From a virus, in IMG/VR virus record IMGVR_UViG_3300005817_000001: 43,830 bases of DNA; one strand, given 5' to 3'. This document shows, piece by piece, positions 25 through 43,597 of the stretch; positions within the stretch are counted from its first letter, which is position 1, and each line of letters starts with the position of its first letter. The notes below the pieces were generated by a model, which did no database searches, was not told the DNA's origin, and was given only the letters and a program-made list of their open reading frames with translations. The position numbers and the translations under genes are program-made.

Positions 25-152
25 TAAAATAATAATCAAATTTTGATACCCCCCTAACGGACCATGATATATACACTAACCATAGGCACCACATACTGAC
101 CTATATAGTATTATGCTAATACCCCCTCCCCATCCTCCCCACTTTCCTAAAT

Positions 153-252: not shown

Positions 253-270
253 TCCCCGGAGTATTCTACA

Positions 271-945: not shown

Positions 946-954
946 CTAGACAAG

Positions 955-1071
955 TTAGTAGGAGGACTGCGCGACGGTTGCATATTTTGTAATCTTCAGG
1001 TATCCTGCCCACTGGACTCGAAAAATTATGTGTCAATTTTTTGACACTACCTGATCGGCTCCTCCTACTAA
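955..1071 (+). promoter_or_regulatory. Intergenic long-range 12-bp inverted repeat enclosing a perfect 7-bp hairpin; candidate RNA processing or regulatory structure
   Basis: TTAGTAGGAGGA (955-966) is the exact reverse complement of TCCTCCTACTAA (1060-1071). The inner hairpin is GTGTCAA-tttt-TTGACAC (1030-1047). No ORF lies in the 147-nt gap. Confidence 0.5.
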
Positions 1072-1092
1072 TTACTCTGGACATACTAAATC

Positions 1093-1407
1093 ATGAATCA
1101 GACTACTCGAAAGCCCTCAGATATTATTCAATTAATACTAGATAAAGGTTTGTACAAGCCAGAAAATCCTAGTACTTTTATGTGCTGCATAATTAATGAT
1201 GCTTATTGCTTTCGCGGACTGATAACTAGGCAAGAGGTATTAAATACTAGAGCTGAAGTACGGCTGGCTATTAAGCATCGACACTTACTAGATAGTTACC
1301 TACGGGACAATTTGAATATTAATCCTGCTACCATAGAAAAGTATCCATTCATCAAAACGCTATTCTACAAAGGCTTAATCAAACGCCTTAAAGCTCAGGG
1401 GAAATAA
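1093..1407 (+). CDS. hypothetical protein (104 aa)
   Basis: ORF in the co-directional gene string; no motif recognised. Confidence 0.65.
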   Translation: MNQTTRKPSDIIQLILDKGLYKPENPSTFMCCIINDAYCFRGLITRQEVLNTRAEVRLAIKHRHLLDSYLRDNLNINPATIEKYPFIKTLFYKGLIKRLKAQGK

Positions 1408-1410
1408 ATC

Positions 1411-1605
1411 ATGATAGCAGAATACATTCTAGTTACTCTAATATGCACTACAATGGATAAGCCTTGTGAGTCTTATGAGTCATTGCCTATGGCTAGTGAA
1501 GAATGCGAGACTAAATCAGTAGAAGTCCTAAGCAATGCGCAAAAGCTGGGAGTTAAAGAGACTGTTCTGACTTACTGCACCAATATGCAATATGAGGGAT
1601 TATAG
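1411..1605 (+). CDS. hypothetical small Cys-containing acidic protein (64 aa)
   Basis: ATG lies 3 nt after the upstream stop, preceded by GGGGAAA. Confidence 0.6.
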   Translation: MIAEYILVTLICTTMDKPCESYESLPMASEECETKSVEVLSNAQKLGVKETVLTYCTNMQYEGL

Positions 1606-1606
1606 A

Positions 1607-1789
1607 ATGGCCATTAAAAGGAATAGGTATTCAGAAAGAACTCCATGGAATCCTAGATTAATACTAATAAGACAAGAGGTAAAAAGATTTGTAGATAAGC
1701 CAGGTTACCCTTTACTACTATTAAACAAGCAGTTAATGAGTAGCCTTGGAATATCAGTAGCCGCAATAATCAAAATGACGGAGAAGTAA
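1607..1789 (+). CDS. hypothetical basic protein (60 aa)
   Basis: Start trimmed to the in-frame ATG at 1607, which has GAGGGA 8 nt upstream and follows the upstream stop at 1603-1605. Confidence 0.6.
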   Translation: MAIKRNRYSERTPWNPRLILIRQEVKRFVDKPGYPLLLLNKQLMSSLGISVAAIIKMTEK

Positions 1790-1792
1790 AAG

Positions 1793-2752
1793 ATGAACAC
1801 CAAAAAATTAGAAGCTGCGCAAACTGTAGCTACTCGCCTCACTTCCCTAATGGCTAAGCAACTAACAGTCATTTGTCCCCTCACTGGGCTGCTAGTATCT
1901 AATGACCTGCCGCCTGCTATTGGCCTTTATATTAACTCTTATCATCCGATAGCCTTACCTGAGAATGCTCGCCAAATTCTTAAAGATAGAGAATACTGGC
2001 GCACGCTAAATAAAGAGCATAAGTCAGCTCTTATTCTTTCCGTATTGAGTGCTTATAATCATCTGTCTCTAGAAGGCCCATCTATTGTAATTAAAGGCCT
2101 TATAGAAACTAACCTTAATGTAAATCAGCTAAATGGATTCCTAGAGTTCTGCGCTGATTATATGGCCACTACTACTAATGGTTGGCCGCTCCTTTCTTTA
2201 GGCCGTGACTTAAACGAGCATACTTTCCTAGACTACATGAACCGTTGTGCATTCATTGAATACCAATTAGCAGACGAAGGCGAAAAGAAAATAGTAGAAG
2301 TGCCTAAGTTTGTTACGTCTGATAAGCGCGGCACCGTACTAGATAAAGAATGTTATGAGGAATGGTTAGAAGCGGCACCGCACCTACCTAAAGAGTTTGT
2401 AGCCAAAGCGGCACCGTTCATCCGTACTATTGCAACAAATCCATCCTCTACTGTAGATAGTATGCTTGCAGTGGTTAAGGACAAAGCCCTAATGCTTTCT
2501 AATGAAGTAGCGCCAGAGGTAGACTGGTTCCTAGAAGCTGCTCATAAGAATAGGGAAGTAGCTAAGAATCTAGGACTTCATAAAGTATTTGAGGACCTAG
2601 AGCTATTTGATACTCCTCCTACTATCTGCACTTCTAATATGGTTGAGATAGACCTAAGTGCAATTGATGAAGTAGTTGAGACTGTAGTAGTAGAAAAAGA
2701 ATTAACTCCTTTCCAGCGTAGAATGGCAGCACTTCGGAGTAAGCAAGTATGA
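1793..2752 (+). CDS. hypothetical protein (319 aa), early/replication arm
   Basis: GGAGAAG RBS. The C-terminus LTPFQRRMAALRSK resembles the N-termini of the 3045 and 5635 gene products. No catalytic motif recognised. Confidence 0.7.
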   Translation: MNTKKLEAAQTVATRLTSLMAKQLTVICPLTGLLVSNDLPPAIGLYINSYHPIALPENARQILKDREYWRTLNKEHKSALILSVLSAYNHLSLEGPSIVIKGLIETNLNVNQLNGFLEFCADYMATTTNGWPLLSLGRDLNEHTFLDYMNRCAFIEYQLADEGEKKIVEVPKFVTSDKRGTVLDKECYEEWLEAAPHLPKEFVAKAAPFIRTIATNPSSTVDSMLAVVKDKALMLSNEVAPEVDWFLEAAHKNREVAKNLGLHKVFEDLELFDTPPTICTSNMVEIDLSAIDEVVETVVVEKELTPFQRRMAALRSKQV

Positions 2753-3045
2753 AATATTTTACCGCTAATCGTAATAATCCGAAACCATTCTACGCTAATC
2801 TATCAACCATCACTCTTACTCGCCCAATCTATTATGACGGGAAAGTAAGGTATGGCGGCAATGAGTATTCTATTCAACGGGCGCAGGATGTAGAAGATCA
2901 TCTAGTACACTATCCTGATGCCAAGTGCGTAATATCTTTTCAAATTTATAGAGATAAGGATAGCGGAATAGTAGAATGCGTTGCCATTCCTAGACTGCAC
3001 TTCTCTCTAACTCCTCCTTCTAATGGTTCCGAGGTAGAAGACTAA
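2749..3045 (+). CDS. hypothetical protein (98 aa)
   Basis: ATGA start/stop overlap with the upstream gene. Confidence 0.65.
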   Translation: MKYFTANRNNPKPFYANLSTITLTRPIYYDGKVRYGGNEYSIQRAQDVEDHLVHYPDAKCVISFQIYRDKDSGIVECVAIPRLHFSLTPPSNGSEVED

Positions 3046-4757
3046 TGGCTCTCACATTTGCGCAACGCTTAGCAGAAGTTAAGGCTAAGAAGAATAAACT
3101 GGCTCAGGCTGTAGAAGCTACTGTAGAGAACGAAGTAGTAGAAAAGCCAGAAGATAGTCTATATAAGTTTGGGGATATCATCCTTAATGAAAAGCAAGCC
3201 CAAGCAGTAGAATATGCAAAAGCCGGTAAGTCTTTCGTTCTTACTGGTGCTGCTGGTACTGGTAAGACGGCTACTCAAGGTGCTGTTGTAGAATACCTAG
3301 AGAAGACTGGTTCCTTTTCTACCCATGACTTCAAGTATATTGGCGTACAGGATTCTATTGCCATTGTAGCCTTTACTAAAGTAGCAGTTCGTAATATTCA
3401 AAAGGCTCTGCGTAAGAATCCAGCTACCGCTAAATACGCTAGACACTGTATGACCATTCACTCCCTACTGGAATATGCCCCAGAGCAAGTAGAGCGTATT
3501 AGTGACGAAGGGGAACTATACACTACTAGAATGTTTGTTCCTCATAGGAATGCTGATAACCCATTGGGCATTACTCATCTAATTATTGAAGAGGCCTCTA
3601 TGGTTGGCCTAGACTTGTGGGCTAATCTATACAATGCCCTACAACTAGGGGTACAGATAATCTACCTAGGGGATATTAATCAGATTCCTCCAGTATTTGG
3701 CAAGTCTATTATGTCCTATGCACTCTGTAAGCTCCCGGTTATCGAACTAACCCATGTATATCGCCAGGCTCTTGATAACCCTATTATTGCTAATGCTCAC
3801 CGAGTATTGAATGGGGAGTCTGTAGTGCCTTCTGCTGATGGTCGCTTCAACGTAATAACTGGTAATAGCAAATACCAAGTAGGTCAAGAGCGCATGGGCC
3901 TAGCACTAGGTAATATGTTCAACCAACTATGGGAAGTAGGAGATTATGATCCAGACAGGGATATGATCCTCATTCCGTATAATAAGCAGGCAATGGGCAC
4001 TACTGCTATGAATGAGAAGATAGCCTCATTCCTAGGAGCTAAGCGTAAAGCACTAGTAACCCCAGTTAAAGCGGGCTTCCAAACTATCTACTTGGCAGTA
4101 GGAGACAAGGTTCTAGTAGATAAGCAGGCTGGATGGGTTACTTCTATTCAGGACAATCCAAAGTATATGGGCCAGACTCCTCCGCCGCCCGGCTATTATA
4201 CTCGTGATGGCTCCCCTATTATTGGTATGGAAGGGGATATAGATTGGGAGGCTACTGGCGGTGAACCAGATGAGATGCCCAACTATGATAACTTCAAGCT
4301 AGAAGAGATTGAGGAAGATATTACTAAGCGAGCAGCTTCTCATATAGTCACCGTATCCTTTGATCCTCCTTGGGCTATGCAAGAGGCAGAGGAGAATGAG
4401 GAAGTATATGAGAGCCTTGGCTCTACTGAGTTAGGAAGTAGTGGAGACTTTGCAGAAGCTAAGTTCCAATTCGGCTATGCTATGACCATCCATAAGGCTC
4501 AGGGTAGTGAATGGCCTAAGGTCTACATTCTATTCCATCAAGATCATATGAACTTCCTATCTCGTGAGCTGGTATATACTGCTATGACCCGCGCTAGAGA
4601 AGTATGCACATTCATCTGTAAGATGGAACTACTTGATAGGGCTGTTGCTAAGCAGAAGATTGCTGGCGTAGGATTGGCTGAGAAGATTATGTTCTTTAAT
4701 GGTGGAGCATTGGCGGATCTGGATAGTATCCCTGTAGTAATGGAGGAGGCCGCCTAA
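3045..4757 (+). CDS. SF1 DNA helicase, RecD/Dda-like
   Basis: Walker A GAAGTGKT; Walker B LIIEEASMV; motif III YLGDINQIPPV; motifs V/VI YAMTIHKAQGSEW and YTAMTRAR. TAATG coupling to the upstream gene. Confidence 0.9.
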   Translation: MALTFAQRLAEVKAKKNKLAQAVEATVENEVVEKPEDSLYKFGDIILNEKQAQAVEYAKAGKSFVLTGAAGTGKTATQGAVVEYLEKTGSFSTHDFKYIGVQDSIAIVAFTKVAVRNIQKALRKNPATAKYARHCMTIHSLLEYAPEQVERISDEGELYTTRMFVPHRNADNPLGITHLIIEEASMVGLDLWANLYNALQLGVQIIYLGDINQIPPVFGKSIMSYALCKLPVIELTHVYRQALDNPIIANAHRVLNGESVVPSADGRFNVITGNSKYQVGQERMGLALGNMFNQLWEVGDYDPDRDMILIPYNKQAMGTTAMNEKIASFLGAKRKALVTPVKAGFQTIYLAVGDKVLVDKQAGWVTSIQDNPKYMGQTPPPPGYYTRDGSPIIGMEGDIDWEATGGEPDEMPNYDNFKLEEIEEDITKRAASHIVTVSFDPPWAMQEAEENEEVYESLGSTELGSSGDFAEAKFQFGYAMTIHKAQGSEWPKVYILFHQDHMNFLSRELVYTAMTRAREVCTFICKMELLDRAVAKQKIAGVGLAEKIMFFNGGALADLDSIPVVMEEAA

Positions 4758-4775
4758 AGGCGCACGCAACCTAGT

Positions 4776-5153
4776 ATGGATATCCCTACTGATGATTTAC
4801 TTCTGTTAGTGAGGGCCCTAGCAGTAACCGAGTACAATACTCCCCAAGATGATTTGTTCTATCTAATATGGCCATCCGCAATTAGTAGAATAAAAGAGAA
4901 CTGGAATCGCCATGAACATTCTTATATGGACCTGCTTAACTCTGATCTTGGTGTGTATTGTATACGGTGCGGGAGTATGTGCGGAGTATGCAAAGGAGGG
5001 GCCATCCGCAGTATTTGCCATATGTGTCCTTCTGATGTTTATCCTACTAACACTTGGAGGTATCATTGCCTTCGCGCTATTGCCGATAGTCCTTTCCAGC
5101 CCTATTACTGTTTAATAAAAGGAGGCCATAATGGCCATCAAAGTATCGTATAA
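4776..5153 (+). CDS. hypothetical protein with a Cys-rich (CxxC-type, zinc-finger-like) C-terminal half (125 aa)
   Basis: The N-terminal 45 aa look like ordinary acidic helical protein, followed by CIRCGSMCGVC...ICHMC. The 3' end overlaps the next gene by 23 nt, as 6348/6562 also do. See the alternative frame 4912-5115. Confidence 0.5.
   Translation: MDIPTDDLLLLVRALAVTEYNTPQDDLFYLIWPSAISRIKENWNRHEHSYMDLLNSDLGVYCIRCGSMCGVCKGGAIRSICHMCPSDVYPTNTWRYHCLRAIADSPFQPYYCLIKGGHNGHQSIV
4912..5115 (+). CDS. alternative-frame small membrane protein (67 aa, two predicted TM helices) embedded in 4776-5153
   Basis: Two ~20-aa hydrophobic stretches are separated by the polar loop AEYAKEGPS. The ORF ends just before the AAAGGAGG RBS of the 5131 gene. 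Its own RBS is weak. Confidence 0.35.
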   Translation: MNILIWTCLTLILVCIVYGAGVCAEYAKEGPSAVFAICVLLMFILLTLGGIIAFALLPIVLSSPITV

Positions 5154-5397
5154 AGATCTAGTGAATCAACTAGAGAAGGACTTGTCTATCTCTTTCTCTA
5201 CTTACGAAGATCCTACTAAGGTGAAGCGTAAAATCTCTATGGCTAAACATCGGGAGAATATTGAAGGTAAACTAATCTTCTCCCATCAACCTGCTCAGGA
5301 TGAAAACAATAAGGAGTACTATGTAATTACAGCAGTACTCACTCCTAAGCGCGGGCAATTAGAACTCATTAAACTTAATTCTACTGAGGGCTTTTAA
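5131..5397 (+). CDS. hypothetical protein (88 aa)
   Basis: Strong RBS AAAGGAGG 5 nt upstream of the ATG. Confidence 0.75.
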   Translation: MAIKVSYKDLVNQLEKDLSISFSTYEDPTKVKRKISMAKHRENIEGKLIFSHQPAQDENNKEYYVITAVLTPKRGQLELIKLNSTEGF

Positions 5398-5398
5398 G

Positions 5399-5635
5399 AT
5401 GGCTCCTAAAAAACTGAAGGTAGGGGATACTGTAATATTTAAGTTGGTTCCTACTCACATTGCTCCATGCTTTAAGTCTGGTCATAGGGTTAGAGGAGGC
5501 TGGCGCAAAGGTATAATTACTGACCTAGTTATGAGCGGCTGCATATGTATAAACGGCTGCATGGTAGTAGATAACGGCCCTATCGCCGCTAGCAGTTGGG
5601 GCGGCACCGTAATTCGTTATGTAGGAGATAAGTAA
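5399..5635 (+). CDS. hypothetical protein (78 aa)
   Basis: GAGGG RBS, tightly packed. Confidence 0.7.
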   Translation: MAPKKLKVGDTVIFKLVPTHIAPCFKSGHRVRGGWRKGIITDLVMSGCICINGCMVVDNGPIAASSWGGTVIRYVGDK

Positions 5636-6345
5636 TGGCTATGACATTTGCAGAACGTATGGCATTGCGTAAGAAAGAAGCTGAGGCTGGTAAGGTTAGT
5701 ACCCCTCTCACTGAAGTAAAGGAGGAGGTAGTAGATAAGCCTAAGCAAGAGATTCCAGAAAGGTTTGCTGAGCAGTTCCGTAAGCCTACTGGCCCCATTC
5801 GTCAATCTGTTGACCTAGATACTAGCAGCGCATCTAATCCTAAGCCTTCTCCTTTCCTAGATAGGCTGAAGAATAGCCCAGCTATTAAGGCAGCTCATCA
5901 AGTAGCAGAGCTAGAGAAGAAGCTGGAAGAAGTAGAAGAAGAGAAGCCTTCTAATAAGATAGAAACCTTCACCCTCTCCAAAGTAATTACAATGTCCAAT
6001 GTAGCTGGACAAGCTGCTCCTACTGAGGGTGAGCTTCTATTAGCTGGGGATATGCCAGAGGACGCCATTCGTATTAAGCAGCGCATAGCCCTTCTATCTA
6101 CCTGCGATGAACACTCATTGAAGAGTGAGATGGATGAGCTTAAGAAACTAATTAAAGCGGCACCGGAGGCCTGTCAATTCCTACTACCTGAAGAGCTAGG
6201 CCAATGTGTACGCGCCCTTCGTAGTATGACTGACAACAAACTAGCGGTAGATATGGGTAGGGCTAAGCCTCGCGCTTCTAAGAAGAAAGAAACTACTCCC
6301 CAACTTACTGCGGCTGACCTATCCGCTGCTCTGGATGATCTTTAA
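5635..6345 (+). CDS. hypothetical Lys/Glu-rich protein (236 aa)
   Basis: TAATG coupling. The N-terminus MAMTFAERMALRKK parallels the helicase N-terminus MALTFAQRLAEVKAKK. Confidence 0.7.
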   Translation: MAMTFAERMALRKKEAEAGKVSTPLTEVKEEVVDKPKQEIPERFAEQFRKPTGPIRQSVDLDTSSASNPKPSPFLDRLKNSPAIKAAHQVAELEKKLEEVEEEKPSNKIETFTLSKVITMSNVAGQAAPTEGELLLAGDMPEDAIRIKQRIALLSTCDEHSLKSEMDELKKLIKAAPEACQFLLPEELGQCVRALRSMTDNKLAVDMGRAKPRASKKKETTPQLTAADLSAALDDL

Positions 6346-6347
6346 TT

Positions 6348-6584
6348 ATGGCCTTCTCTAAAGTTGGACTAACCCCTCTACAAATGGCGCAGAAGAAGTA
6401 CTGGCAAGATATGGGTACTTGTGAGCGCGTAAGGATGCAGTTAGAAGCTATGCCCTATAGTGATGGCAAGTATGATGCCATTGAATATGTTATAAGGGCT
6501 AAAAGAATCATCAAGGAAAGATATGCAGAGGAGTCTGCTAGACTAAAGGAGGAAGCTAAGCATGGCTCAGAAATTCCCTTCTGA
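6348..6584 (+). CDS. hypothetical protein (78 aa)
   Basis: ORF in the gene string. Confidence 0.6.
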   Translation: MAFSKVGLTPLQMAQKKYWQDMGTCERVRMQLEAMPYSDGKYDAIEYVIRAKRIIKERYAEESARLKEEAKHGSEIPF

Positions 6585-6786
6585 TTATATCAACCTAGAT
6601 GAGCTGCCAGATACGCCTCAGATGAATAGAGTGTATGCAGCCCTTCTACAATTGAAGCATTACTATCAGCTATCCTATCTTGCAGCCTGCTACAATGAAG
6701 GTAAGGAGGAGCTGTTCTATAAGACTCTTGGTCTAGTGAAGCATGATAGGGCTATTACTGGGCACCCTAGGAGAATAGGTAAATGA
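6562..6786 (+). CDS. hypothetical protein (74 aa)
   Basis: AAGGAGG RBS at 6546-6552; 23-nt overlap with the upstream gene. Confidence 0.65.
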   Translation: MAQKFPSDYINLDELPDTPQMNRVYAALLQLKHYYQLSYLAACYNEGKEELFYKTLGLVKHDRAITGHPRRIGK

Positions 6787-7802
6787 TAGAGCTAGAGCAA
6801 AGCCTGGCTAATATACAGTCAGCCACTTCTCAGCTAGTAGAAGTTCCAGAAGGCGCGCTTACTATGGCAGATGAGGGTAGCCGTGTGCGCCTCTCGTATT
6901 CTACCCTTGAACTTCTTCATGGCTGTGAGCGTAAGTTTCAAAAGACCAAGCTACTGCACAATCCTATGGCTAGGGATGAGTCCCCTGCTATGGTATTTGG
7001 TAGCGCAATGGGTGCAGCGTGGCAGCATTACTTTGTCCTCCGTAGTTTTGGGCATAGCGTTCAAGAGAGTATTGATAGTGCTCTGTGGGAAGCCTATATT
7101 AATTATTGGCCAATACTGGAGGACGACCGTCGGTTCCAAGAACGCGCCTATTACATTATGATTCGCAGTGTAGATTTCCTAGAGAAGCAACTAAAGGAAT
7201 GGGAGATTGCGCTATTCAATGGTAGGCCCGCATCTGAATTATCCTTCAACCTAGATATTAATAAACGCTTCTACTTTGTAGGTGCCATTGACTTGGTATT
7301 GCGGCACCGTAGAAGCGGGAGGTATGCAGTAGTAGATATCAAGACTACTAGCATCTATGGGGAAGACCTAACTCCTCAGTATAAATTCTCTGACCAGACA
7401 CTAGGCTATACCATTGTCATTGATAAGGTAGCAGGAGAGGAGGTAACTCAATATGATACAGTGTATTGGGTATGCCAGATGCCTTCCAGAGGTATTGAAT
7501 CCCTCTATCAACCCAACTTCAAGGAGTATGTATTCCCTAAGACTCTTAAGGATCGCTTTGATTGGTTCCTTAAAGTCTACCTAGATGTAAACTATATTGA
7601 GACCCTTGCTGAACTAGATGCTTATCCCAAAAGGGGTAGCCATTGTATGAGCTTCAATAAGGTTTGCATGTTCTTCAATGAGTGCCAGTTCACCCACTCT
7701 GATACTCCGGCAATCTATGTTCCAGATGATAAGAAGTATGACTTCACTTATGAACTGGACGCTATCCTAGAGGATCACAATAGGAGACTTCTTTCCGCAT
7801 GA
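6783..7802 (+). CDS. PD-(D/E)XK nuclease of the Cas4 / RecB-like family with four Fe-S-type cysteines
   Basis: GAIDLV...YAVVDIKT (D...D-x-K); QTLGY (QxxxY); N-terminal HGCERKF plus C-terminal C-x6-C-x5-C (CMSFNKVCMFFNEC). Confidence 0.8.
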   Translation: MIELEQSLANIQSATSQLVEVPEGALTMADEGSRVRLSYSTLELLHGCERKFQKTKLLHNPMARDESPAMVFGSAMGAAWQHYFVLRSFGHSVQESIDSALWEAYINYWPILEDDRRFQERAYYIMIRSVDFLEKQLKEWEIALFNGRPASELSFNLDINKRFYFVGAIDLVLRHRRSGRYAVVDIKTTSIYGEDLTPQYKFSDQTLGYTIVIDKVAGEEVTQYDTVYWVCQMPSRGIESLYQPNFKEYVFPKTLKDRFDWFLKVYLDVNYIETLAELDAYPKRGSHCMSFNKVCMFFNECQFTHSDTPAIYVPDDKKYDFTYELDAILEDHNRRLLSA

Positions 7803-7927
7803 GTTCTTTAGAGGAGCTATACCTAACTTGGTATGAAGAGTGGGTAAGCATACTGATTGAAGCTGAGATAAGCCCTGAAGTATTCCCACTCGATTGGTAT
7901 TTTAGAATCCGTAAAGGAGAGTTTTGA
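7799..7927 (+). CDS. small hypothetical protein (42 aa), below the ORF-track length cut-off
   Basis: ATGA overlap with the nuclease stop. The ORF MSSLEELYLTWYEEWVSILIEAEISPEVFPLDWYFRIRKGEF fills the gap exactly and stops 2 nt before the next ATG. Confidence 0.55.
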   Translation: MSSLEELYLTWYEEWVSILIEAEISPEVFPLDWYFRIRKGEF

Positions 7928-7929
7928 TT

Positions 7930-8520
7930 ATGACGCGCACTTACGCAATGCTCGACCTTGAGTTCACTAGCCTTGACCTGAATCATTCCCACATTACTGA
8001 TTGGGGTATTGTAGTATTCGATAAGGATACCTTTGAACCCATCCAAGAATTAGGTGAGCGCTGCCCAGTATTAGAATCCCATTGGAATAAGCAAACCTTA
8101 GAGTGGGCTAAGGCGCATACTAGTGAAGAGGTGATGGCCCAAACCGTAGTCTATCCTTCTCCCCATTTTAACATGGATGAGTACAGGGAGATGCGGCAGG
8201 AATACTTCTTCCGTATGCACAGGGCTATCACTGATCTGATTACCTATTATGGTCAGAAGGAATTAGTCTTCATTATCAATCATCCAGAATGTGATGCTAC
8301 CCTACTTAAAAGGACCTACAAGAAGTATGGAGTAGAGTACCCAGTCCACTATCAAAACCATAAGGATATGGACTCGCTTATGATGGCTTCTATGGGGGCC
8401 AATTATGATGCGCGATATAGAATGTGGGATGAGATTAAAACAAAGACGGCTCACACTGCTATTGCAGACTGCCTTGAGCAGATCAATAAGCTTAAGTTCT
8501 TTGAGGTTAACCTTCCGTAA
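7930..8520 (+). CDS. DnaQ-like (DEDDh) 3'-5' exonuclease
   Basis: Exo I LDLEF; Exo II NHPECD; Exo III HTAIAD. Start set to the ATG at 7930, 10 nt after AAAGGAG. Confidence 0.8.
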   Translation: MTRTYAMLDLEFTSLDLNHSHITDWGIVVFDKDTFEPIQELGERCPVLESHWNKQTLEWAKAHTSEEVMAQTVVYPSPHFNMDEYREMRQEYFFRMHRAITDLITYYGQKELVFIINHPECDATLLKRTYKKYGVEYPVHYQNHKDMDSLMMASMGANYDARYRMWDEIKTKTAHTAIADCLEQINKLKFFEVNLP

Positions 8521-8527
8521 GTAAGGT

Positions 8528-8670
8528 AAGCGGCTTTATCTAATAGTCTTGTTCTAGTGGGGACGAGCATGTATTCTACGAAACGGGCTGCACTTGTGCC
8601 TGCCCGTGCAGTTAAGATACAGCGAAGTAGGGTCCCACGAACAAGGACTATTCGTAAAGACTAGCGAAAA
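8528..8670 (+). ncRNA. Structured intergenic element, copy A (twin of 17750-17897 on the - strand); class unknown
   Basis: AATAGTCTTGTTC (8542-8554) pairs with GAACAAGGACTATT (8639-8652), and GTGGG (8557-8561) pairs with CCCAC (8634-8638). The other copy has the same architecture with compensatory changes. No ORF. Confidence 0.6.
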
Positions 8671-8694
8671 GGATAATCCCTGAGGTATAAGATA

Positions 8695-8868
8695 ATGAAT
8701 GAGAAGGAGATGGTCCCATACCTACGGGTTAATGGATGGACTGAACATCCTGATGATCCTAGTTATTGGCTTAGTCCTAAAGGCGATCCCGCCTATAAGT
8801 ATAAGACCACTACTGCCTATGGAGCGCAGCGTAGATACGAACAGAGAAAGAGGAAGGGGAATGCCTAA
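8695..8868 (+). CDS. small hypothetical protein (57 aa), different frame from track ORF 8699-9115
   Basis: ATG at 8695 with GAGG 9 nt upstream. MNEKEMVPYLRVNGWTEHPDDPSYWLSPKGDPAYKYKTTTAYGAQRRYEQRKRKGNA has normal protein composition. It ends in ATGCCTAA, overlapping the next start. Confidence 0.55.
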   Translation: MNEKEMVPYLRVNGWTEHPDDPSYWLSPKGDPAYKYKTTTAYGAQRRYEQRKRKGNA

Positions 8869-9115
8869 CTGGTACATACAAAGGAAAGATAATAACCACT
8901 TCCTTAAGACTGTAAACAATACGGCGGTGCGTACTAAGTATTTATGGGTAGATAAGATAGAAGAGGCTACCAACTTTCGCTATCAGATAACTGCTCAGCG
9001 TACAGCTCATACCTTAACCCGAACCAATAGCAATAAGGACAGGCCAGTTAGACTACTCTGTCAAGAATCAACTGGAAAAATTTTCGAGGTTGCAAAAATC
9101 GAAATCGAGGAGTAG
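8861..9115 (+). CDS. hypothetical protein (84 aa)
   Basis: Internal ATG of track ORF 8699-9115, preceded by GGAAGGGG. The upstream part of that ORF (MRRRWSHTYG...) looks like an out-of-frame read of the 8695 gene. Confidence 0.55.
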   Translation: MPNWYIQRKDNNHFLKTVNNTAVRTKYLWVDKIEEATNFRYQITAQRTAHTLTRTNSNKDRPVRLLCQESTGKIFEVAKIEIEE

Positions 9116-9162
9116 CATGGGCCTCACCTTCGAAAATCATCTTAATAATCAGGCAAGCGAAT

Positions 9163-10155
9163 ATGAAACTTTCTCAGTTAATTAGCGCAAGCAATGCTGC
9201 TGGTATTAAGGCTCCGAAGCGAACTCATAGTATGCTAGTTTATGGAATGCCTAAAGTAGGTAAGACTGAATTAGCTGCAACAATCGCTAAGCTGAATGCA
9301 GTAGACAACGTATACTGGTTTGATCTGGAGAATGGCGCAGACACTATCCTTGATATGTATCGTCGAGGTCGCCTAACACTAGAACAGCTTGATAAGATTA
9401 CCCTTATTAAGGTTCCAGATACTCGTGAAAATCCTACTGGCATGGAGACTCTACTTCGCGCAATTGCTACTAGGAACCCCGTTAAGATTTGTGAGGAGCA
9501 CGGTAAGGTAGCCTGTCCGCAATGCGCTAAAGATGGTAGTCCAGTAATTGACTTCTGCCATAGCAAGCTAACTGATCGAGACGTTATTGTAATTGACTCT
9601 CTATCCCAGGCTGGTGTATCTGCTCTTAATATGGCAATGATTGGTAAGGCTCAAGAAGCTAAGGCTGAATGGGATCATTATGGAATGCAAGGCCGGTTCC
9701 TTTCTGATCTTCTTACAGTTATCCAAGCCGCTCAGTATACCAACTTCATTTGTATCACGCACGTTCAAGTACTAGAGGATGATGCCGGTAAGGATGTCTA
9801 TTCTCCTATGTGTGGTACTAAGACTTTCAGTGCAGGAGTAGCTAAGTATTTCGGCTCTATCATCTACGCTGAAATGAAGATGAAGAAGCATAAGGCTGGC
9901 TCTAGTACAAGCTATAATGCAATGACTCAAGCTGGCTCTCGTATCGGTATCGTATTGGAGAAAGAGGATGAACTTGATCTATCAATTGCTTTACCTAAAG
10001 CGGGGCTGTTTACACAATCCAGCGGAGCCGACACCGAAGCAGTTTCTACAGATGCGCAAGCTGTACAGAGTACAGCAGTTCGGCAAGAATCTGAAGTGGT
10101 AGAAAAGAATTCTTCTACAGTAGTAGAGAATAGGCCGAAGCGATTCGGTAAGTAA
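9163..10155 (+). CDS. RecA-fold AAA ATPase, Sak4-like recombination protein with an S/T/Q-rich C-terminal tail
   Basis: Walker A GMPKVGKT; Walker B VIVIDSLS; followed by a DUF669-like gene, as in Sak4 modules. Confidence 0.7.
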   Translation: MKLSQLISASNAAGIKAPKRTHSMLVYGMPKVGKTELAATIAKLNAVDNVYWFDLENGADTILDMYRRGRLTLEQLDKITLIKVPDTRENPTGMETLLRAIATRNPVKICEEHGKVACPQCAKDGSPVIDFCHSKLTDRDVIVIDSLSQAGVSALNMAMIGKAQEAKAEWDHYGMQGRFLSDLLTVIQAAQYTNFICITHVQVLEDDAGKDVYSPMCGTKTFSAGVAKYFGSIIYAEMKMKKHKAGSSTSYNAMTQAGSRIGIVLEKEDELDLSIALPKAGLFTQSSGADTEAVSTDAQAVQSTAVRQESEVVEKNSSTVVENRPKRFGK

Positions 10156-10204
10156 GTAAGTAAACCCAACGGCATAAGCCAACTCTATATCAAAGGAAAT
10201 AACC

Positions 10205-10702
10205 ATGTCCATTCTGAACCTCGATGACGCTCTCTCCCAGTCCCTGTCCACTACTGAAGCTGCTCCTGACTTCGTTACCCCTGAGAACGGCGTATACGTT
10301 TTTGAAGTAGAAGCTACTGGCGCTGAGCAGAAAGATACTAAGGATGCTAAGAAGGCTCAAGCTGAAGGCAAGCCGCTGAAGTATATCGTACTGAAGCTGA
10401 CCTATAAGATCACTGATATCATTGAGCAAGAAGGCGCTCCGATCAAGCCAGGCTCCCTTACTAGCGAGCAGTTCATTCTGAACGATCAAGGTCTGCCGTA
10501 CTTCAAAGCCCGTATCCGTGATATCGCAGTAGCCTCTGGTGGTAGTGCAGAAGATGTGGATGGCCTGTCTATTGCAGAGGCTCTGGAAGCCGTCAAGGGT
10601 ATTACCTTCAAGGTTAACGCCAAGCAGAACAAGCGTACTGTAGATGGCAACGAGATTGTCAACATTCGCTACTCTAACATTCGCAACGCTGAAGCTGAAT
10701 AA
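10205..10702 (+). CDS. probable ssDNA-binding partner of Sak4 (DUF669-like), highly expressed
   Basis: Position immediately after the Sak4-like gene, ~165 aa, acidic, with an N-terminal P-x-x-G-x-Y-x-F-E pattern. CTG/CGT/GCT-biased codon usage resembles the capsid gene. Followed by a terminator. Confidence 0.45.
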   Translation: MSILNLDDALSQSLSTTEAAPDFVTPENGVYVFEVEATGAEQKDTKDAKKAQAEGKPLKYIVLKLTYKITDIIEQEGAPIKPGSLTSEQFILNDQGLPYFKARIRDIAVASGGSAEDVDGLSIAEALEAVKGITFKVNAKQNKRTVDGNEIVNIRYSNIRNAEAE

Positions 10703-10721
10703 GCCTAGCTGCTAGTGTTAA

Positions 10722-10757
10722 ATAAGGGCTACTACGGTGGCCCTTATCTTCTTTCTT
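10722..10757 (+). terminator. Rho-independent terminator
   Basis: ATAAGGGC (10722-10729) / GCCCTTAT (10740-10747), 10-nt loop, then CTTCTTTCTT. Confidence 0.7.
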
Positions 10758-10778
10758 GTACCATCCGAGGGCTACACA

Positions 10779-11087
10779 ATGTCTAAAGTCATCATGGTTG
10801 CACTGGCTATTAATCTTGGCCAGCATCCTGCAATGGGTACTGAACGTCTCAACCTGTTCTTCGATACCTATCCTACTCACGCTGATGTAGAGAACGCTAT
10901 CCAAGAGGAAGATAAGGACGGCCGCTACGCTGAACTGTTCTCCCAACTGGAAGTAGATGACATTCTGGACTTCCAAACAGACTTCGAAACTGAAGGCTTT
11001 ATTAGCTTCGATGTAGCGGACGAGTCTGGTAGTGTCCTCATTCAAGAGCTGCCTCTACATAGTAGCTCTAACGTAGAAATGGAGTAA
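10779..11087 (+). CDS. hypothetical acidic protein (102 aa)
   Basis: Start trimmed to the ATG at 10779 with a GAGGG RBS. The track start at 10737 lies inside the terminator. Confidence 0.65.
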   Translation: MSKVIMVALAINLGQHPAMGTERLNLFFDTYPTHADVENAIQEEDKDGRYAELFSQLEVDDILDFQTDFETEGFISFDVADESGSVLIQELPLHSSSNVEME

Positions 11088-11149
11088 CTAAAAAGCCCTC
11101 TTATCATTAGTTTGGTAGGAGGGCTTCTTAGTTTCTCGGGGAGGAATTC

Positions 11150-11335
11150 ATGAATACGCATCGTACTACTCCAGATTCAGAAGAAGAGAAGTGGCTCCGC
11201 AGTAAGGGCTGGATTGAAAATAGTATAGGCCATTGGCAGAAGATGGGGGCCTTTATAGATGGAGCACTTACCTTAGAAGATGCCATCAAGCTAGAAAAGA
11301 TAATGGAGAGCTGGTGGAATGAAGGTCCTAATTAA
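11150..11335 (+). CDS. hypothetical protein (61 aa)
   Basis: GGGGAGG RBS. Confidence 0.65.
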   Translation: MNTHRTTPDSEEEKWLRSKGWIENSIGHWQKMGAFIDGALTLEDAIKLEKIMESWWNEGPN

Positions 11336-13685
11336 TTATACCTTAGAAGAAAAAGCCTACCTCAATGCGATGGACTGGCTGCTTAAGAAGAATGGGCACG
11401 AAGGCGTAGCTACTTCTCGCACTCTTAGTATGACAGAGATTAATACTCTGGCTGCCTCAGCTGGATGCTCTGCCGTGCTAGTAGGTAATGCGCACACTCT
11501 TAAGAACTTGGTGGGTGGAGAGAAGCCTACACTAGATAAGTGGCGTGGCACTAGAGTTGACCTCAATGTAGTCTGCATTGTAATCAATTCCCTTACTCAC
11601 TTCCACTCTGTAAACCATGGGCAGTGGCTATTCCAAAAGGACATTGATAAGCTAAAGTATATCCATAGGAAGCGCACGCCTTTCACCTATAGTGTACTGA
11701 AAGACCCAGCTCAATTCAGCAAGTGGTTAGACTTAGCAGAAAAAGCTATTCTAATCGGCTGCGACATTGAGACCAATCAACATAGCATGAAGAAGAACGC
11801 TAAGGCTTCTACTAAAGTATCCTGCTTTGATCCTAGTACCTATGACATTGCAGGGCTAGGCGAAACTTGGATTACTTGCTTGGGCTTTTCCATGCTCATG
11901 CCAGACTTAACCATTGAGACTTGTGTACTTCCTTTAGTGGAAGGCACTGAAGATTTCTGGTTAACGGATACTAACTATGCTTTGGCTATTGATTTCATGC
12001 GGAGTATGCTTGCTACTGATACTCCTAAGTGTTTCCACAATGGCCTATATGACTGCTTCCATCTCATTCGCTACAACGCTTGGCCACGTAATTGGGTGCT
12101 CGATACTATGGGGCTTTCTCATAGTTGGTATTCGGAGCTACCTAAAACTCTAGACTTCCTTTGTAGCTGGACTCTACATGACTACTACTTCTGGAAGGAT
12201 GAGGCAGACTCCACTCATAAGGCTAAAGACTATGGTAGCTATTACCAGTACAACGCTAAAGACTGTTGGGGAATGGTCCGCTCTTTGGTACAGCTCTTGC
12301 TCAATGGCGAGGACTGGATGTTTACGAACTATCAACCAGCTTTCCGCCTTGTCTATCCTAGTCTCTACGGTGCCTTCGAAGGACTTAAGGTTAACAATGA
12401 GACAAGAGCTAAATTGTTAAAAGGAGCCATGGAGAAGAAAGAGGAAGAGTTAAAGACTATCAGAGTAATGACTGATGATCCTGACTTTAATCCCGGTAGT
12501 CCTAAGCAAGTAGAGCATTTCATCTATGAAGTACTAGGCGCACGCCGTCCTCCTAGAAGTAAGAGTAAAGGAGCTACTGATAAGAAGTCTAGGGTATATG
12601 TAAGCGGACAGCATCCTCTGATTGCTATGTTCACTGACCGTCTCGATGTGTATAACAAAGAAGCTAAGGCAATCAGTACTTACTATACCTTCCTGCTATG
12701 GCATAGCCGGCTTATGTACTCACTTGACCCATTTGGTACGGAGACTGGCCGCTTTGCTAGTAGGGCTAGTGCAGGCTGGTGTGGTACTCAGATTCAGAAT
12801 CAGCCTCCATATGCTAAGTATATGTACGAACCAGATGAAGGCTTTATTGGATTTGAGTTTGACTATAGCAAAGCAGAAGCTGTATGTACTGCGCACTTAG
12901 CAGAAGCAGTTACCTTGATCGAAGCTCTAGCTGATAAGAGTGTAGACTTCTACAAGAGACTGGGTAATCTATTCTTCCAAATGAAAGTTGAGGAGGTAAC
13001 AGACGACTTCCGAAATAAGGTTTGCAAAAAGATTCAACACGGTACAAACTATATGATGGGGGCGATGACCTTTATTGATAATACTGGTGCTTCCATTCTA
13101 ATGTTTGCTGCTGGTATCCTCAACATAACAATTGTGGATATGAAGTCTACAAGGGATGATGAAATGACTATGCCGGAGTTCGCACAATTCCTGCTAGACT
13201 CTTATCATAATCCTTTCCCAGAAGTAAAACGTTGGTGGGAATCTATTCGATTGGAAGTAGCGACAACTGGTAAGCTCGTATCTCCTACTGGTCATGTACG
13301 TTATTTCTTCGGTGATCCTACCAAGAACCATAAAGTATTCCGTAGCGCAGTAGCGCATCAACCCCAGAACTTATCTGTCACTAAACTGAACGAAGGTATG
13401 TGGAAGGTCTACTCTTTGATGAAGCAGTACCCCGGCATCATAAGACTAAAGACCCAAATCCACGACAGCGTTAAGTGTCAGATTCGAATAGACAAATGCC
13501 GAGAACTGGTTCCACTAATCCAAGATACCATTACCGCAAGGCATATGGTAAAGGGGCGTATGATGGTTATTGAAGTAGACGCTGAAGCCTATAGCACCTG
13601 CTGGAAAGACAAGATCAAATGGTCTAAGTTTAAGGAAGAGCAACTGCCCGCACTAGAGGCAGAATATGCCAGGCTCACCAACTAA
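11319..13685 (+). CDS. Family A DNA polymerase with an N-terminal 3'-5' exonuclease domain
   Basis: Exo I CDIET; Exo II HNGLYD; Exo III YNAKD; pol motif A FDYSKAE; motif B RNKVCKKIQHGTNYMMG; motif C QIHDS. Confidence 0.92.
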   Translation: MKVLINYTLEEKAYLNAMDWLLKKNGHEGVATSRTLSMTEINTLAASAGCSAVLVGNAHTLKNLVGGEKPTLDKWRGTRVDLNVVCIVINSLTHFHSVNHGQWLFQKDIDKLKYIHRKRTPFTYSVLKDPAQFSKWLDLAEKAILIGCDIETNQHSMKKNAKASTKVSCFDPSTYDIAGLGETWITCLGFSMLMPDLTIETCVLPLVEGTEDFWLTDTNYALAIDFMRSMLATDTPKCFHNGLYDCFHLIRYNAWPRNWVLDTMGLSHSWYSELPKTLDFLCSWTLHDYYFWKDEADSTHKAKDYGSYYQYNAKDCWGMVRSLVQLLLNGEDWMFTNYQPAFRLVYPSLYGAFEGLKVNNETRAKLLKGAMEKKEEELKTIRVMTDDPDFNPGSPKQVEHFIYEVLGARRPPRSKSKGATDKKSRVYVSGQHPLIAMFTDRLDVYNKEAKAISTYYTFLLWHSRLMYSLDPFGTETGRFASRASAGWCGTQIQNQPPYAKYMYEPDEGFIGFEFDYSKAEAVCTAHLAEAVTLIEALADKSVDFYKRLGNLFFQMKVEEVTDDFRNKVCKKIQHGTNYMMGAMTFIDNTGASILMFAAGILNITIVDMKSTRDDEMTMPEFAQFLLDSYHNPFPEVKRWWESIRLEVATTGKLVSPTGHVRYFFGDPTKNHKVFRSAVAHQPQNLSVTKLNEGMWKVYSLMKQYPGIIRLKTQIHDSVKCQIRIDKCRELVPLIQDTITARHMVKGRMMVIEVDAEAYSTCWKDKIKWSKFKEEQLPALEAEYARLTN

Positions 13686-13700
13686 CAGAAGGAGTGTGGT

Positions 13701-14948
13701 ATGTCCTTCTTCAAGGAGTATCTCGACTACGTAGGAGAGTCAGAGTCACCAGACATTTATCATAGATGGACAGCTATATCTCTAATAGGCAGTGTACTAG
13801 GTAGGAACTTCTGGTTTCCTCACGGACACTTTACAATCTATCCTAACATGTATATCATGCTACAGGGTCTGCCCGCAGTACGCAAAAGCTCAGCTATTAA
13901 TATCGGTAATAAGATTCTCAAGAAGACTGGATATAAGAAGTTTGCTAGTAGTCGCATGAGTCGTGAGATGTTCCTTCAGGAACTGCACCATATCAATCAG
14001 CCTAACCCCGATGAGTATAGCTTCGATGAATTACTAGATATGAAGATGGATGGAGCCAATGAGATTACTATCCATGCAGGAGAGTTCTTAGACTTCATAG
14101 GCCAAGGGGATAAGGATTACCTAATGCTCATCACTAACCTATGGGATAACCTAGATGAGTACAAGAACCCAAAACTTACTAGTAAGACTGTGGTTGTTAC
14201 CAAGCCGACTATTAACTTCCTTGCAGCTAATACTCCAGAGGCGCTTAACATGGCTTTCCCGCCAGAGGTTATTGGCAGTGGTACTCTTAGTCGGTTTCTG
14301 TTTATACATAGTCCTGGTACTGGTAAAAAGATTCTTATGCCGAAAGCCCCGTGCCCGAAGAAAGAAGAAGCTATAATCAACTATTTATCGGACATACAGG
14401 ATCAGGTTAAAGGAGAGGCTAAGGTAACTGCAGAAGCACTAGAGGTTTTAGACTATCTGTATAACAATCAAGAGCCTATTGATGATCCAAGGTTCTCTCA
14501 CTACACCGCGCGTAGGCTGACTCATCTACTTAAGCTAGGCTTGATTGTAGCAGCCAGCCGACTAAGTACTACTATCACTGAGCGAGACGTATTGATTGCC
14601 AATACCTTTCTTGGTGCCGCTGAATATGGAATGCCGAAAGCCTTAGGCCACTTTGGTAGGAGCAAGTACTCAGCTAGTTATCATGCCATCTTAGAATTCC
14701 TTGAGGAAGCGGGACGGCCTATGACTATGAAGGACTTGTATATCAGGTTCAGTAGTGACTTCGCAAAAGAGACTGACTTCCTAGCTACCATGATGGATAT
14801 GCAGAACGCTGACAAAGTAGTAGCGATCAGGAAGGACGATAAGTTTATTGGCATGACAACTAAAGGAACCCCTTTCCCTAAATGGCTTAAGCCTGTCATG
14901 CTAACTGAAGAATTAACTAAGCAAGAACTAGGAGTGATCGGACTATGA
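13701..14948 (+). CDS. VirE / DUF3987-like P-loop protein (candidate replicative helicase or primase partner)
   Basis: The P-loop-like segment LQGLPAVRKSS has R in place of the second Walker A glycine. Size and position next to the polymerase fit. AGAAGGAG RBS. Confidence 0.4.
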   Translation: MSFFKEYLDYVGESESPDIYHRWTAISLIGSVLGRNFWFPHGHFTIYPNMYIMLQGLPAVRKSSAINIGNKILKKTGYKKFASSRMSREMFLQELHHINQPNPDEYSFDELLDMKMDGANEITIHAGEFLDFIGQGDKDYLMLITNLWDNLDEYKNPKLTSKTVVVTKPTINFLAANTPEALNMAFPPEVIGSGTLSRFLFIHSPGTGKKILMPKAPCPKKEEAIINYLSDIQDQVKGEAKVTAEALEVLDYLYNNQEPIDDPRFSHYTARRLTHLLKLGLIVAASRLSTTITERDVLIANTFLGAAEYGMPKALGHFGRSKYSASYHAILEFLEEAGRPMTMKDLYIRFSSDFAKETDFLATMMDMQNADKVVAIRKDDKFIGMTTKGTPFPKWLKPVMLTEELTKQELGVIGL

Positions 14949-16210
14949 ACTGGACAGAATATTCAAAGCTGGCTTTGCGCACTGAATCTATTCCAATTAA
15001 TACTTATGGCGCTATTACCCTAGGTAAATCAAATCAAGAGGAGCCATGTGAAAAGGCTACTCGTCTACTCCACGCTGCAATGGGATTAGTTACCGAAACT
15101 CAGGAGATTGAAACATATAGGGACAAGGTTAATCTAATTGAGGAGATTGGAGACTGCTTCTGGTATATTCCTATTATCGCTGATGTAATTCCTAAGTTTA
15201 ATATACAACCGGTATTAGCAGTAAGACTTGCATCTGGTTCACCGGAATATAACCTACGAGCCTGTAGACGTTACGCGGCTGAGTTAATAGACTTGATAGG
15301 CAAGCGCCATATCTTCTATGGAAAGGAGCTTGATCTTACTAAAGTAGTGAGCGCAGCGGAGTCTTACACCTATTACCTAGTTCGCTACTGTACAGTTATG
15401 CAGATTGATCTTGAGCATACTTGGGAAGCAAATATCAAAAAGCTAGAGAAGCGCTATCCTGATCTACGTTTCAATGGTGAGCACGCAGTTAATCGCAATG
15501 TAGCTAATGAGCTATCCCATATTGAAGAGGCAGTAGATATGGAGAGTAAGGATCAGGCTTATACAGAACCTACAAGTGTAGATGACCAGATTAAATTAAA
15601 CTGGGAAATTCTAAAGACTGGTATCCAGACTGATCTAGTGTATCATGCAGATCCAGATAAGGTAGCAGTAGCTGTACTAGAGTACCTGAACTGCTCTGAG
15701 GATCATGCTAGAATTCTGCTAGGAGAAGAGTTCGAACGCTGCCGATTTACTATAGTGCATGATGGGGATAAGCAAATTCTTACAGCAGTACCTCTCAAAT
15801 TCAAAGAGGCGGATGAAGATAAGGCGGATGCTAAAGCCATTGAAGAACGCAGCGCCGAACCCACCTATGAAGTAGCTTTGGATGGGCAGGGTATTCTAGA
15901 AGTTACAGCTAAAGGGTTCAATAGCATTCTCCGTAATGACTTCACTCCTAATGAGATTGAACGCATTGCAATGGGCCTATCCTTTGAGCTAGGCAATAAG
16001 TTTAAAGCTGCTGGCATGGATATCCTAGCTACCGCAATGGGCGGTGTATATAGAGAGTACAGCGGACGCGGAGATAAGCTAGCTGACAATACTGTATTCG
16101 GGATGTACGAGATGATGGGATATCCAAAGACTATGGAAGGTATCCTAGCTATCGCCAACTCCATTCTAAGGAAACCTAAAGATGCAAGTGATAACTCCAG
16201 CGCAGGATAA
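14945..16210 (+). CDS. MazG-like NTP pyrophosphohydrolase domain fused to a ~250-aa C-terminal region of unknown function
   Basis: LLHAAMGLVTETQEIE and EEIGDCFWY (E-x2-E / E-x2-D helix pair) lie in the first ~170 aa. ATGA overlap with the upstream gene. Confidence 0.7.
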   Translation: MNWTEYSKLALRTESIPINTYGAITLGKSNQEEPCEKATRLLHAAMGLVTETQEIETYRDKVNLIEEIGDCFWYIPIIADVIPKFNIQPVLAVRLASGSPEYNLRACRRYAAELIDLIGKRHIFYGKELDLTKVVSAAESYTYYLVRYCTVMQIDLEHTWEANIKKLEKRYPDLRFNGEHAVNRNVANELSHIEEAVDMESKDQAYTEPTSVDDQIKLNWEILKTGIQTDLVYHADPDKVAVAVLEYLNCSEDHARILLGEEFERCRFTIVHDGDKQILTAVPLKFKEADEDKADAKAIEERSAEPTYEVALDGQGILEVTAKGFNSILRNDFTPNEIERIAMGLSFELGNKFKAAGMDILATAMGGVYREYSGRGDKLADNTVFGMYEMMGYPKTMEGILAIANSILRKPKDASDNSSAG

Positions 16211-16409
16211 GACTCGCGCAGAATGTCGTAAGATGAAGTTCAGTGGAATTCGGAGTGATAAGATTCTGGAGAACTTCGAGATTTGGTTGATGGGTAATAT
16301 GGTAGAAGAGATTACTAGCGAGCAGTTAGCAGTTAATCCTTACGCCATCAGTCGAGCATACGAACGAGCCTTTGGTTTGCATGAAGGCACTGTGTACATC
16401 AGCCAATAA
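16182..16409 (+). CDS. hypothetical protein (75 aa)
   Basis: AAGGAAA RBS; 29-nt overlap with the MazG fusion gene. Confidence 0.5.
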   Translation: MQVITPAQDKTRAECRKMKFSGIRSDKILENFEIWLMGNMVEEITSEQLAVNPYAISRAYERAFGLHEGTVYISQ

Positions 16410-16455
16410 CTTAACCAATAAGGGGCATCTCATTCATGTCCCAGGAGATAATGTT

Positions 16456-43565: not shown

Positions 43566-43597
43566 TTGCCTATTGGAAAGTAGAATAGATGGGGGAA

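Follow-up and report, generated by a model that had tools for sequence, protein, structure and literature searches.

A structured RNA element with covariation support in a small clade of uncultivated PaP2-like phages

To our knowledge, phages rarely carry structured RNAs with covariation support other than tRNAs, introns and a few regulatory motifs. Imperfect palindromes of about 100-150 nt occur in transcribed intergenic DNA as ERIC/IRU, Correia and REP/BIME repeats and as attC sites, with a conserved base, a variable interior and either orientation; these bacterial palindromic repeats and attC sites are present in many copies at polymorphic positions, together with a cognate transposase or integrase or a target-site duplication, and some of the repeats affect mRNA stability or are cut by RNase III. 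RNase III signals need a coaxial duplex of about 20-22 bp (two A-form helical turns), in which bulges or internal loops restrict the enzyme to one strand and yield stabilising 3' ends, and several related signals of this kind are found in the early mRNA of phage T7 (PMC3867540). The put RNAs of phage HK022 are composed of two stem-loops, comprise about 70 nt and lie just downstream of the early promoters (PMC9378689).

The window analysed here (the whole stretch of DNA, ~43.8 kb) has identical sequences at positions 1-24 and 43807-43830, indicating a circular assembly or a terminally redundant genome. The contig matches Ga0245549_0058 of JGI metagenome 3300038944, and its portal and Sak4-like proteins share 48% identity with those of the Pseudomonas phages PaP2 and 119X (family Fredfastierviridae). 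The genes form two convergent arms: a plus arm (1-17676, replication) that codes for a Dda-like helicase, a PD-(D/E)XK nuclease, an Rv2179c-like 3'-5' exonuclease, a Sak4-like ATPase, PolA, a primase-like protein, MazG and a GH5-domain protein, and a minus arm (43765-17901, late) that codes for terminase, portal, capsid and tail proteins and ends with the gene of a 1893-aa protein. The element studied here is found once in each arm, in the following setting:

7924-8520, plus strand: gene of the Rv2179c-like 3'-5' exonuclease.
8528-8669, plus strand: copy A of the element in its full extent (covariance-model match of 165.8 bits, E = 6e-41; fold z = -3.84).
13701-14948, plus strand: primase-like gene (phrog_14296 'DNA primase', E = 9e-138; weak match to DUF3987).
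17690-17730, both strands: bidirectional intrinsic terminator where the convergent arms meet, next to copy B and outside the element.
17751-17896, minus strand: copy B of the element in its full extent (covariance-model match of 108.2 bits, E = 6e-26; fold z = -2.97).
17901-23582, minus strand: gene of the 1893-aa protein (end-to-end match to phrog_16165; homologues gp25 of PaP2 and Tiera_022, a 'putative structural protein').

Several other features of these genomes deserve mention. The 1893-aa protein has no match in Pfam and no sequence match in the PDB, and one idea is that it might be a virion RNA polymerase that uses hairpin promoters. At the end of the plus arm, the ORF at 16372-17676 (plus strand) contains a GH5 cellulase domain (PF00150, E = 8e-32), and this locus differs among relatives, with versions of 406 aa, 434 aa or 526 aa, or none at all. 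Between the divergent arms, spanning the contig junction, direct and inverted repeats of the form (G)AATGAAGGG(A) are clustered at 43583-43692 and 159-254; these clusters look like iterons and could represent a replication origin or a regulatory region. Two strong terminator-like hairpins of 11 and 14 bp (10722-10747 and 11093-11126, plus strand) occupy short gaps ahead of the polymerase gene and probably mark a boundary between transcription units; both have syntenic counterparts in the related contig L159 (8549-8575 and 8925-8958), similar single hairpins precede the polymerase gene in the related contig L135 and in PaP2, and the related contig L160 has none. In the PaP2 record (L152), identical sequence hits 547 nt apart (30254-30291/30801-30838 and 30568-30587/31115-31134) suggest that about 0.55 kb is directly repeated in the part of the record whose annotation shows gp33-35 as overlapping genes.

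A first-pass annotation of this DNA had described a structured element behind the exonuclease gene and a diverged twin on the opposite strand, an observation that is confirmed as real. The two basal pairings proposed, of AATAGTCTTGTTC (8542-8554) with GAACAAGGACTATT (8639-8652) and of GTGGG (8557-8561) with CCCAC (8634-8638), are exact in their coordinates, and the twin is indeed on the minus strand at 17882-17768. Copy A fills the gap between the stop codon of the exonuclease (8520) and the start of a 138-aa ORF, which is at 8699 and not at 8695 as initially read. Copy B is located in the 3' UTR of the 1893-aa protein gene, the last of the late operon, about 20 nt upstream of the terminator stem. 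Each copy has ORFs upstream on its own strand, so the claim that both are sense to local transcription holds. The A/B pair is the longest and best inverted repeat of the window (I1 and I6), and the covariance model, even with filters off, detects these two copies and no others in the 43.8-kb genome; they share a mean column identity of 74% over the whole gaps and 66% over the element proper. The four differences between them in the basal helices P1 and P2 (A-U to C-G, G-C to U-A, U-A to C-G and G-C to U-A) are all compensatory, as had been stated, and both copies fold better than shuffled sequences, the comparison by which the annotation had proposed to judge the pairing.

The failure of the annotation to recognise a tRNA, ribozyme or riboswitch was also borne out. 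Rfam 15 gave no match at the gathering threshold in the window, L159, L160 or L135, and searches of both copies at E<=10 returned nothing relevant, the best match of copy A being a 10.9-bit chance match and those near copy B falling on the terminator, while ARAGORN found no tRNA or tmRNA gene.

The consensus of the homologous copies is one long rod, with a basal half conserved in sequence and a variable apical half. From base towards tip, it is composed of a tentative outer helix (P0); an invariant base (C-G, U·C and AAU:AUU); two to three covarying pairs with a bulged nucleotide; an invariant CUUGUUC/GAACAAG helix; an invariant UA bulge; P2; a 3' bulge (RRGGN); P2a; a GNA/GNA loop; and P2b. 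These parts, and the apical ones above them, are placed in copy A as follows:

8530-8540, plus strand: 5' strand of P0, GCGGCUUUAUC, in loose pairing with CGUAAAGACUAGC (8653-8665); a tentative outer helix.
8542-8554, plus strand: 5' strand of P1, AAUAGUCUUGUUC; the upper CUUGUUC is invariant and the lower AG(U) covaries.
8555-8556, plus strand: UA bulge between P1 and P2, invariant in 14 of 14 distinct sequences.
8557-8562, plus strand: 5' strand of P2, GUGGG(G), paired with (U)CCCAC at 8633-8638; four of the five core pairs are changed on both sides.
8563-8568, plus strand: 5' side of P2a (AC), of the loop, G(N)A, and of P2b (GC).
8570-8575, plus strand: 5' strand of P3, UGUAUU, paired with GAUACA at 8616-8621; in A-type copies only.
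8584-8606, plus strand: apical hairpin P4, CGGGCuGCA-CUUG-UGCcuGCCCG.
8622-8632, plus strand: 3' side of P2b (GC), of the loop (GAA) and of P2a (GU), followed by the purine-rich bulge AGGG; together, the first-pass annotation's 'AGCGnAGTAGGnTCC'.
8639-8652, plus strand: 3' strand of P1, GAACAAGGACUAUU, with one bulged nucleotide.

In the outer helix P0, copies A and B differ by G-C to A-U and U-A to C-G changes, but the helix is not kept in L159. P2 covaries and has a length of 5-6 bp, and the 2-bp P2a is found as AC/GU, GC/GC or GU/AC, is paired in 100% of cases and has both of its pairs changed on both sides, whereas P2b (GC/GC) is invariant. The strands of this region had been described as a conserved unpaired junction, but parts of them form two small helices, P2a and P2b, flanking the symmetric GNA/GNA internal loop. 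The 3' motif AGACTAG, which had been listed as conserved, is common to A and B; L159, whose copy is the most diverged, does not keep it.

The apical half of A-type copies is formed by P3, an internal loop conserved in sequence (UCUAC / GCAGUuAAG) and the capped hairpin P4. In L159 and L013, U-A pairs of P3 are replaced by G-C and C-G, and the P4 helix of L159 is retained with a different sequence (GGGCCAUA-CCCG-UAUGGCCC). B-type copies, collinear with A in the basal half, have an unlike apical half composed of CAC/GUG and a long imperfect hairpin, which is 100% paired in the four distinct B copies, with three one-sided changes, all of them through G·U. TACGAnAC and CCGTGCAG are collinear in the two copies and represent residual homology; the hexamer CTTGTG, also listed as shared, is differently positioned in each copy. 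Further pairings were considered and rejected. The variants, by inspection, give no support to pairing of CUAC with GUAG; for the 3' tail AGACUAG, pairing with CUAG at the P1/P2 junction or with the P1 5' strand likewise lacks support from the variants, which back P2a instead; and a pseudoknot in copy A combining CGGGC/GCCCG with CUGCAC/GUGCAG is sterically impossible, the CUUG-capped P4 being backed by L159.

Relatives were sought through the flanking exonuclease and the Sak4-like protein in Logan contigs, covering eleven further sequencing runs, and homologues of the element were found in 11 related metagenomic phage contigs. Copy A is at the same place in nine of them (L011, L012, L013, L014, L154, L155, L156, L157 and L161) and, in diverged form (81.5 bits), in L159; copy B is present in L014, L155, L156, L158 and L161. 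The fold z of the RNA ranges from -2.3 to -5.3 across all 16 copies. Among the 14 distinct sequences, 95.8% of the cells of the basal structure are paired, compared with 87% in shuffles and 36-46% in register-slid controls, and 13 pairs are changed on both sides, a number that none of 500 shuffles reaches and that is at most 3 in the slid controls. The nine A-type sequences alone give the same picture (11 pairs changed on both sides), and compensatory changes occurred in at least four lineages (B, L013, L014/L161 and L159). The element is thus shown to be a conserved RNA structure with covariation support.

At the nucleotide level, the element is conserved at least as well as the best core genes. 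It shares 94% identity with its homologue in L014, as against 80-83% for Sak4, PolA and the primase-like gene, and 70% with that in L159, as against 54-69% for the best core genes; similarly, copy B is 94-98% identical among genomes in which the adjacent coding sequence is 82-83% identical. These values show that the element is under purifying selection. A neutral palindromic duplication or a by-product of recombination, with no function of its own, would agree with the narrow distribution and with the small number of lineages sampled, but is extremely unlikely given an element more conserved than its flanking genes, with compensatory changes in at least four lineages and 95.8% pairing.

The genome of L159, whose Sak4 protein is 71% identical, carries copy A and lacks copy B: the stop codon of the corresponding 1889-aa gene is followed directly by the same terminator. 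Copy A is, then, the older of the two and copy B a later duplication, which, by comparison with L159, looks as if about 170 nt had been inserted cleanly ahead of the terminator, directly behind the stop codon; models that require an inverted pair are weakened by this genome with a single copy. Beyond these contigs, blastn against INPHARED gave no match among cultured phages, and a covariance-model search with filters off found no copy in PaP2 or in the Polaromonas phage Tiera. Scans of IMG/VR with three specific patterns gave no match, and a 14-base pattern gave chance matches only; in the representative genomes of 185,579 GTDB species there were two chance pattern matches, neither of them confirmed by the covariance model. 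No copy was found in the primase relatives from IMG/VR (L001-L009), in the Sak4 relatives from JGI/ENA (L135-L151) or in the Logan contig L160, the element-less L160 and L135 having Sak4 identities of 66% and 64%; contig P0018 begins at Sak4 and does not include the upstream region. A 13.5-bit match in L135 was discarded, as it is inside a coding region and unstructured (z = -0.33). It follows from this distribution that the element arose in a narrow clade of uncultivated PaP2-related phages.

The surroundings of copy A are in part more variable than the element itself. The gene content beside it (window 8520-9163; L011-L014, L154-L157 and L159) is highly variable while the element is nearly constant: upstream, ORFs of 53-168 aa come and go, and downstream, ORFs of 131-138 aa and 84 aa are variably present. 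In L160, the gap syntenic to that of copy A contains a different structured stretch of about 200 nt (9569-9779, plus strand; z = -3.80), including an 88-nt rod, which has no match in Rfam and may be a functional analogue of the element.

Regarding the molecule in which the structure acts, the sense RNA is more stable than the antisense by 3-19 kcal/mol in 16 of 16 copies. The basal helices contain 23 G·U/U·G cells versus 2 A·C/C·A, and the apical hairpin of copy B nine G·U versus no A·C cells. When DNA energy parameters are used, folding is significant for either strand (z = -3.8 and -3.0), which makes a role as single-stranded DNA compatible with thermodynamics, although the substitution pattern is nonetheless RNA-like. 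Taken together, the data point to an element that acts as a sense-strand RNA.

The first-pass annotation had proposed three functions, namely an RNase III-type processing or stability site, a stable non-coding RNA, and a single-strand priming signal acting in DNA, the last of them attractive because no primase was recognisable. This premise is wrong, since the primase-like gene at 13701-14948 is present, and the proposal is further weakened by the lone copy A of L159, the sense-strand and G·U bias and the iteron-like repeats elsewhere in the genome. Signals of the ssi type (RSF1010 ssiA/ssiB, G4 ori) form an opposed hairpin pair at the origin; here, the copies are 9 kb apart, and L159 has one. 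More generally, a hairpin acting at the DNA level, as an ssi priming signal, as a recombination site or as a small MITE- or attC-like mobile palindrome whose base provides the terminal inverted repeats, seems quite unlikely. MITEs and attC sites do have a conserved base and a variable interior, copy B resembles a clean insertion of about 170 nt, gene content varies on both sides of copy A and both strands fold with DNA parameters, and the P1 strands, with their invariant outer and upper parts, would trivially pass as terminal inverted repeats. The junction of copy B, when compared with L159, nevertheless shows no target-site duplication, and the two copies are at fixed, syntenic positions, with no confirmed copy in the GTDB representatives or in the IMG/VR pattern scans. 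Neither Pfam nor PHROG identifies a transposase, integrase or HUH protein among the ORFs of the window, many of the small ones being without annotation. Covariation, moreover, extends well beyond what 'terminal repeats' would involve, G·U is strongly favoured over A·C and the sense strand over the antisense, and an opposed pair is unnecessary in view of the single copy of L159, with the primase-like gene and candidate iterons located elsewhere.

Another possibility, very unlikely in our view, is an antitermination RNA acting in cis, of the HK022 put or EAR RNA type, in which the nascent element would modify RNA polymerase and make it resistant to downstream terminators. Like putL and putR (PMC9378689), the two copies are related, occupy opposite strands and are both in the sense orientation of their operons, and the terminator-like hairpins that lie 2.1-2.5 kb downstream of copy A are kept in L159, the equivalent region of the element-less L160 having none; yet L135 and PaP2, which also lack the element, have strong terminator-like hairpins before the polymerase gene as well. 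The architecture and position also differ from those of put: instead of two adjacent stem-loops of about 70 nt in all, close to a promoter, the element is one rod of about 140 nt, located about 8.5 kb into the plus arm (A) and at the very 3' end of the minus arm (B), where the only terminator beyond it is the final convergent one, read-through of which would produce antisense RNA.

Two of the three initial proposals, the RNase III-type site and the stable non-coding RNA, are the best readings of the element, and the present results do not separate them; the interpretation of the first-pass annotation as a whole is thus partly supported. Our best guess, offered tentatively and by analogy with T7, is that the element serves as a module for RNase III-type processing and stability embedded in the mRNA. 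The element would be made as part of polycistronic mRNAs, copy A in the early (replication) operon and copy B in the 3' UTR of the late operon. Its basal half would form a coaxial duplex of about 20 bp (the C-G/U·C/AAU base, P1 and P2, with the invariant 1-nt bulge and the UA bulge), followed by the purine-rich bulge and the GNA/GNA loop, and this duplex would serve as a recognition platform for a double-strand-specific factor, most likely the host RNase III. Once this duplex is cleaved or bound, the mRNA would be severed at the element, its new 3' end closing in a stable hairpin, and the flanking mRNA segments would be uncoupled in decay and expression, as happens at the RNase III signals of T7, with the apical half mainly providing a stable rod.

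Several features are in line with a processing module of this kind. The C-G pair, P1 (13 bp) and P2 (5-6 bp) add up to 19-21 bp, about two turns, interrupted by the 1-nt and 2-nt bulges, and the element is a sense-strand hairpin in an intercistronic region or 3' UTR of a polycistronic phage mRNA. It also carries bulges and internal loops, which may direct a single-strand cut, as at cleavage sites of the T7 type, or may block RNase III instead. One difficulty is that recognition by RNase III is largely independent of sequence, and therefore does not explain the invariant nucleotides of the helices and bulges (CUUGUUC/GAACAAG, the CUAAU/AUUCG base, the UA bulge and the GNA loop). In addition, at 140 nt the element is two to three times the size of a T7 signal; it does not occur at many gene boundaries, as those signals do, with two copies in this genome and one in L159; and processing directly upstream of a strong terminator, as at copy B, would bring no obvious benefit.

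This pattern of invariance suggests a sequence-specific partner and, because it exceeds what RNase III demands, makes a decoy or regulatory RNA a serious rival, possible if still rather doubtful. According to such a model, the rod would be excised from early (A) and late (B) transcripts, accumulate and bind in trans a host or phage protein through its basal half, acting as a sponge, decoy or regulator, for instance against a defence system. Such a mix of invariant nucleotides and freely covarying neighbours is what a sequence-specific protein site typically shows, the apical half varies freely, and the element, a discrete module of about 145 nt, was duplicated as a whole, its duplication into the late operon being expected to give expression throughout infection; the accessory distribution, in one clade only, would fit as well. 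On the other side, copy A has no promoter or terminator of its own in the scan, the best internal promoter candidate (TTGTTC-17-TATTCT) matching the sigma-70 consensus at 7 of 12 positions and not being flagged, and the search for a partner protein yielded none, its sole lead from co-occurrence having failed.

That lead was a Cys/His-rich ORF of 125 aa with three CxxC motifs (4776-5153, plus strand), to which JGI assigns no call. Conservation extends to L013, L014 and L159 and, in weaker form, to L160 (4011-4421). By tblastn the ORF first seemed restricted to element-bearing genomes, but L160, which lacks the element, encodes a syntenic counterpart that shares the CxxC pattern, and the ORF was therefore rejected as a partner. 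The protein has no family match and a single cluster of homologues, and its AlphaFold model (pLDDT 38) is unusable.

A broader version of a role in trans, which we likewise hold to be no better than a doubtful possibility, is a new class of phage RNA, whose basal half would dock a specific host or phage protein and which, once excised, would sequester a host nuclease, a defence protein or an RNA-polymerase factor, or which would be catalytic or regulatory in a way that has yet to be described.

Whatever its function, the element is a structured RNA family absent from Rfam and confined to a small clade of PaP2-like phages. It is well supported, evolves more slowly than the surrounding core genes and has been duplicated and retained. 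As a processing and stability module, it would show how phages that depend on the host RNA polymerase partition their long operons; as a protein-binding decoy, it would represent a new phage counter-measure or regulator. Although the phages are uncultivated, the element is small enough for direct tests based on synthesis.

Among known systems, the families of Rfam 15 (self-cleaving ribozymes, riboswitches, sRNAs, Y RNA, 6S RNA, pRNA and phage motifs) include compact RNAs of similar size, but none of them matches. The element differs from ERIC/IRU, Correia and REP/BIME repeats and from attC sites in having one or two fixed copies, no enzyme found, no occurrence outside a phage clade and covariation that runs along the whole rod. 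With putL and putR of HK022 it shares the occurrence as two related structured RNAs, one per strand and both in the sense orientation of their operons, and the conservation of important bulges while the stems covary (PMC9378689), although it is a single rod of about 140 nt in mid-operon or at an operon end, and one relative has a single copy. Compared with the R0.3 and R1.1 signals of T7, it is two to three times longer, is present in one or two copies, has helices that are invariant in part and, in one copy, is found just before a terminator; there is no sequence in common. Like those signals, however, it is an intercistronic sense hairpin with more than one related copy, of about two turns with loops and bulges, in which the sequence is conserved around the loops while the stems covary, and it is filed here with the structured intercistronic elements of phage mRNAs.
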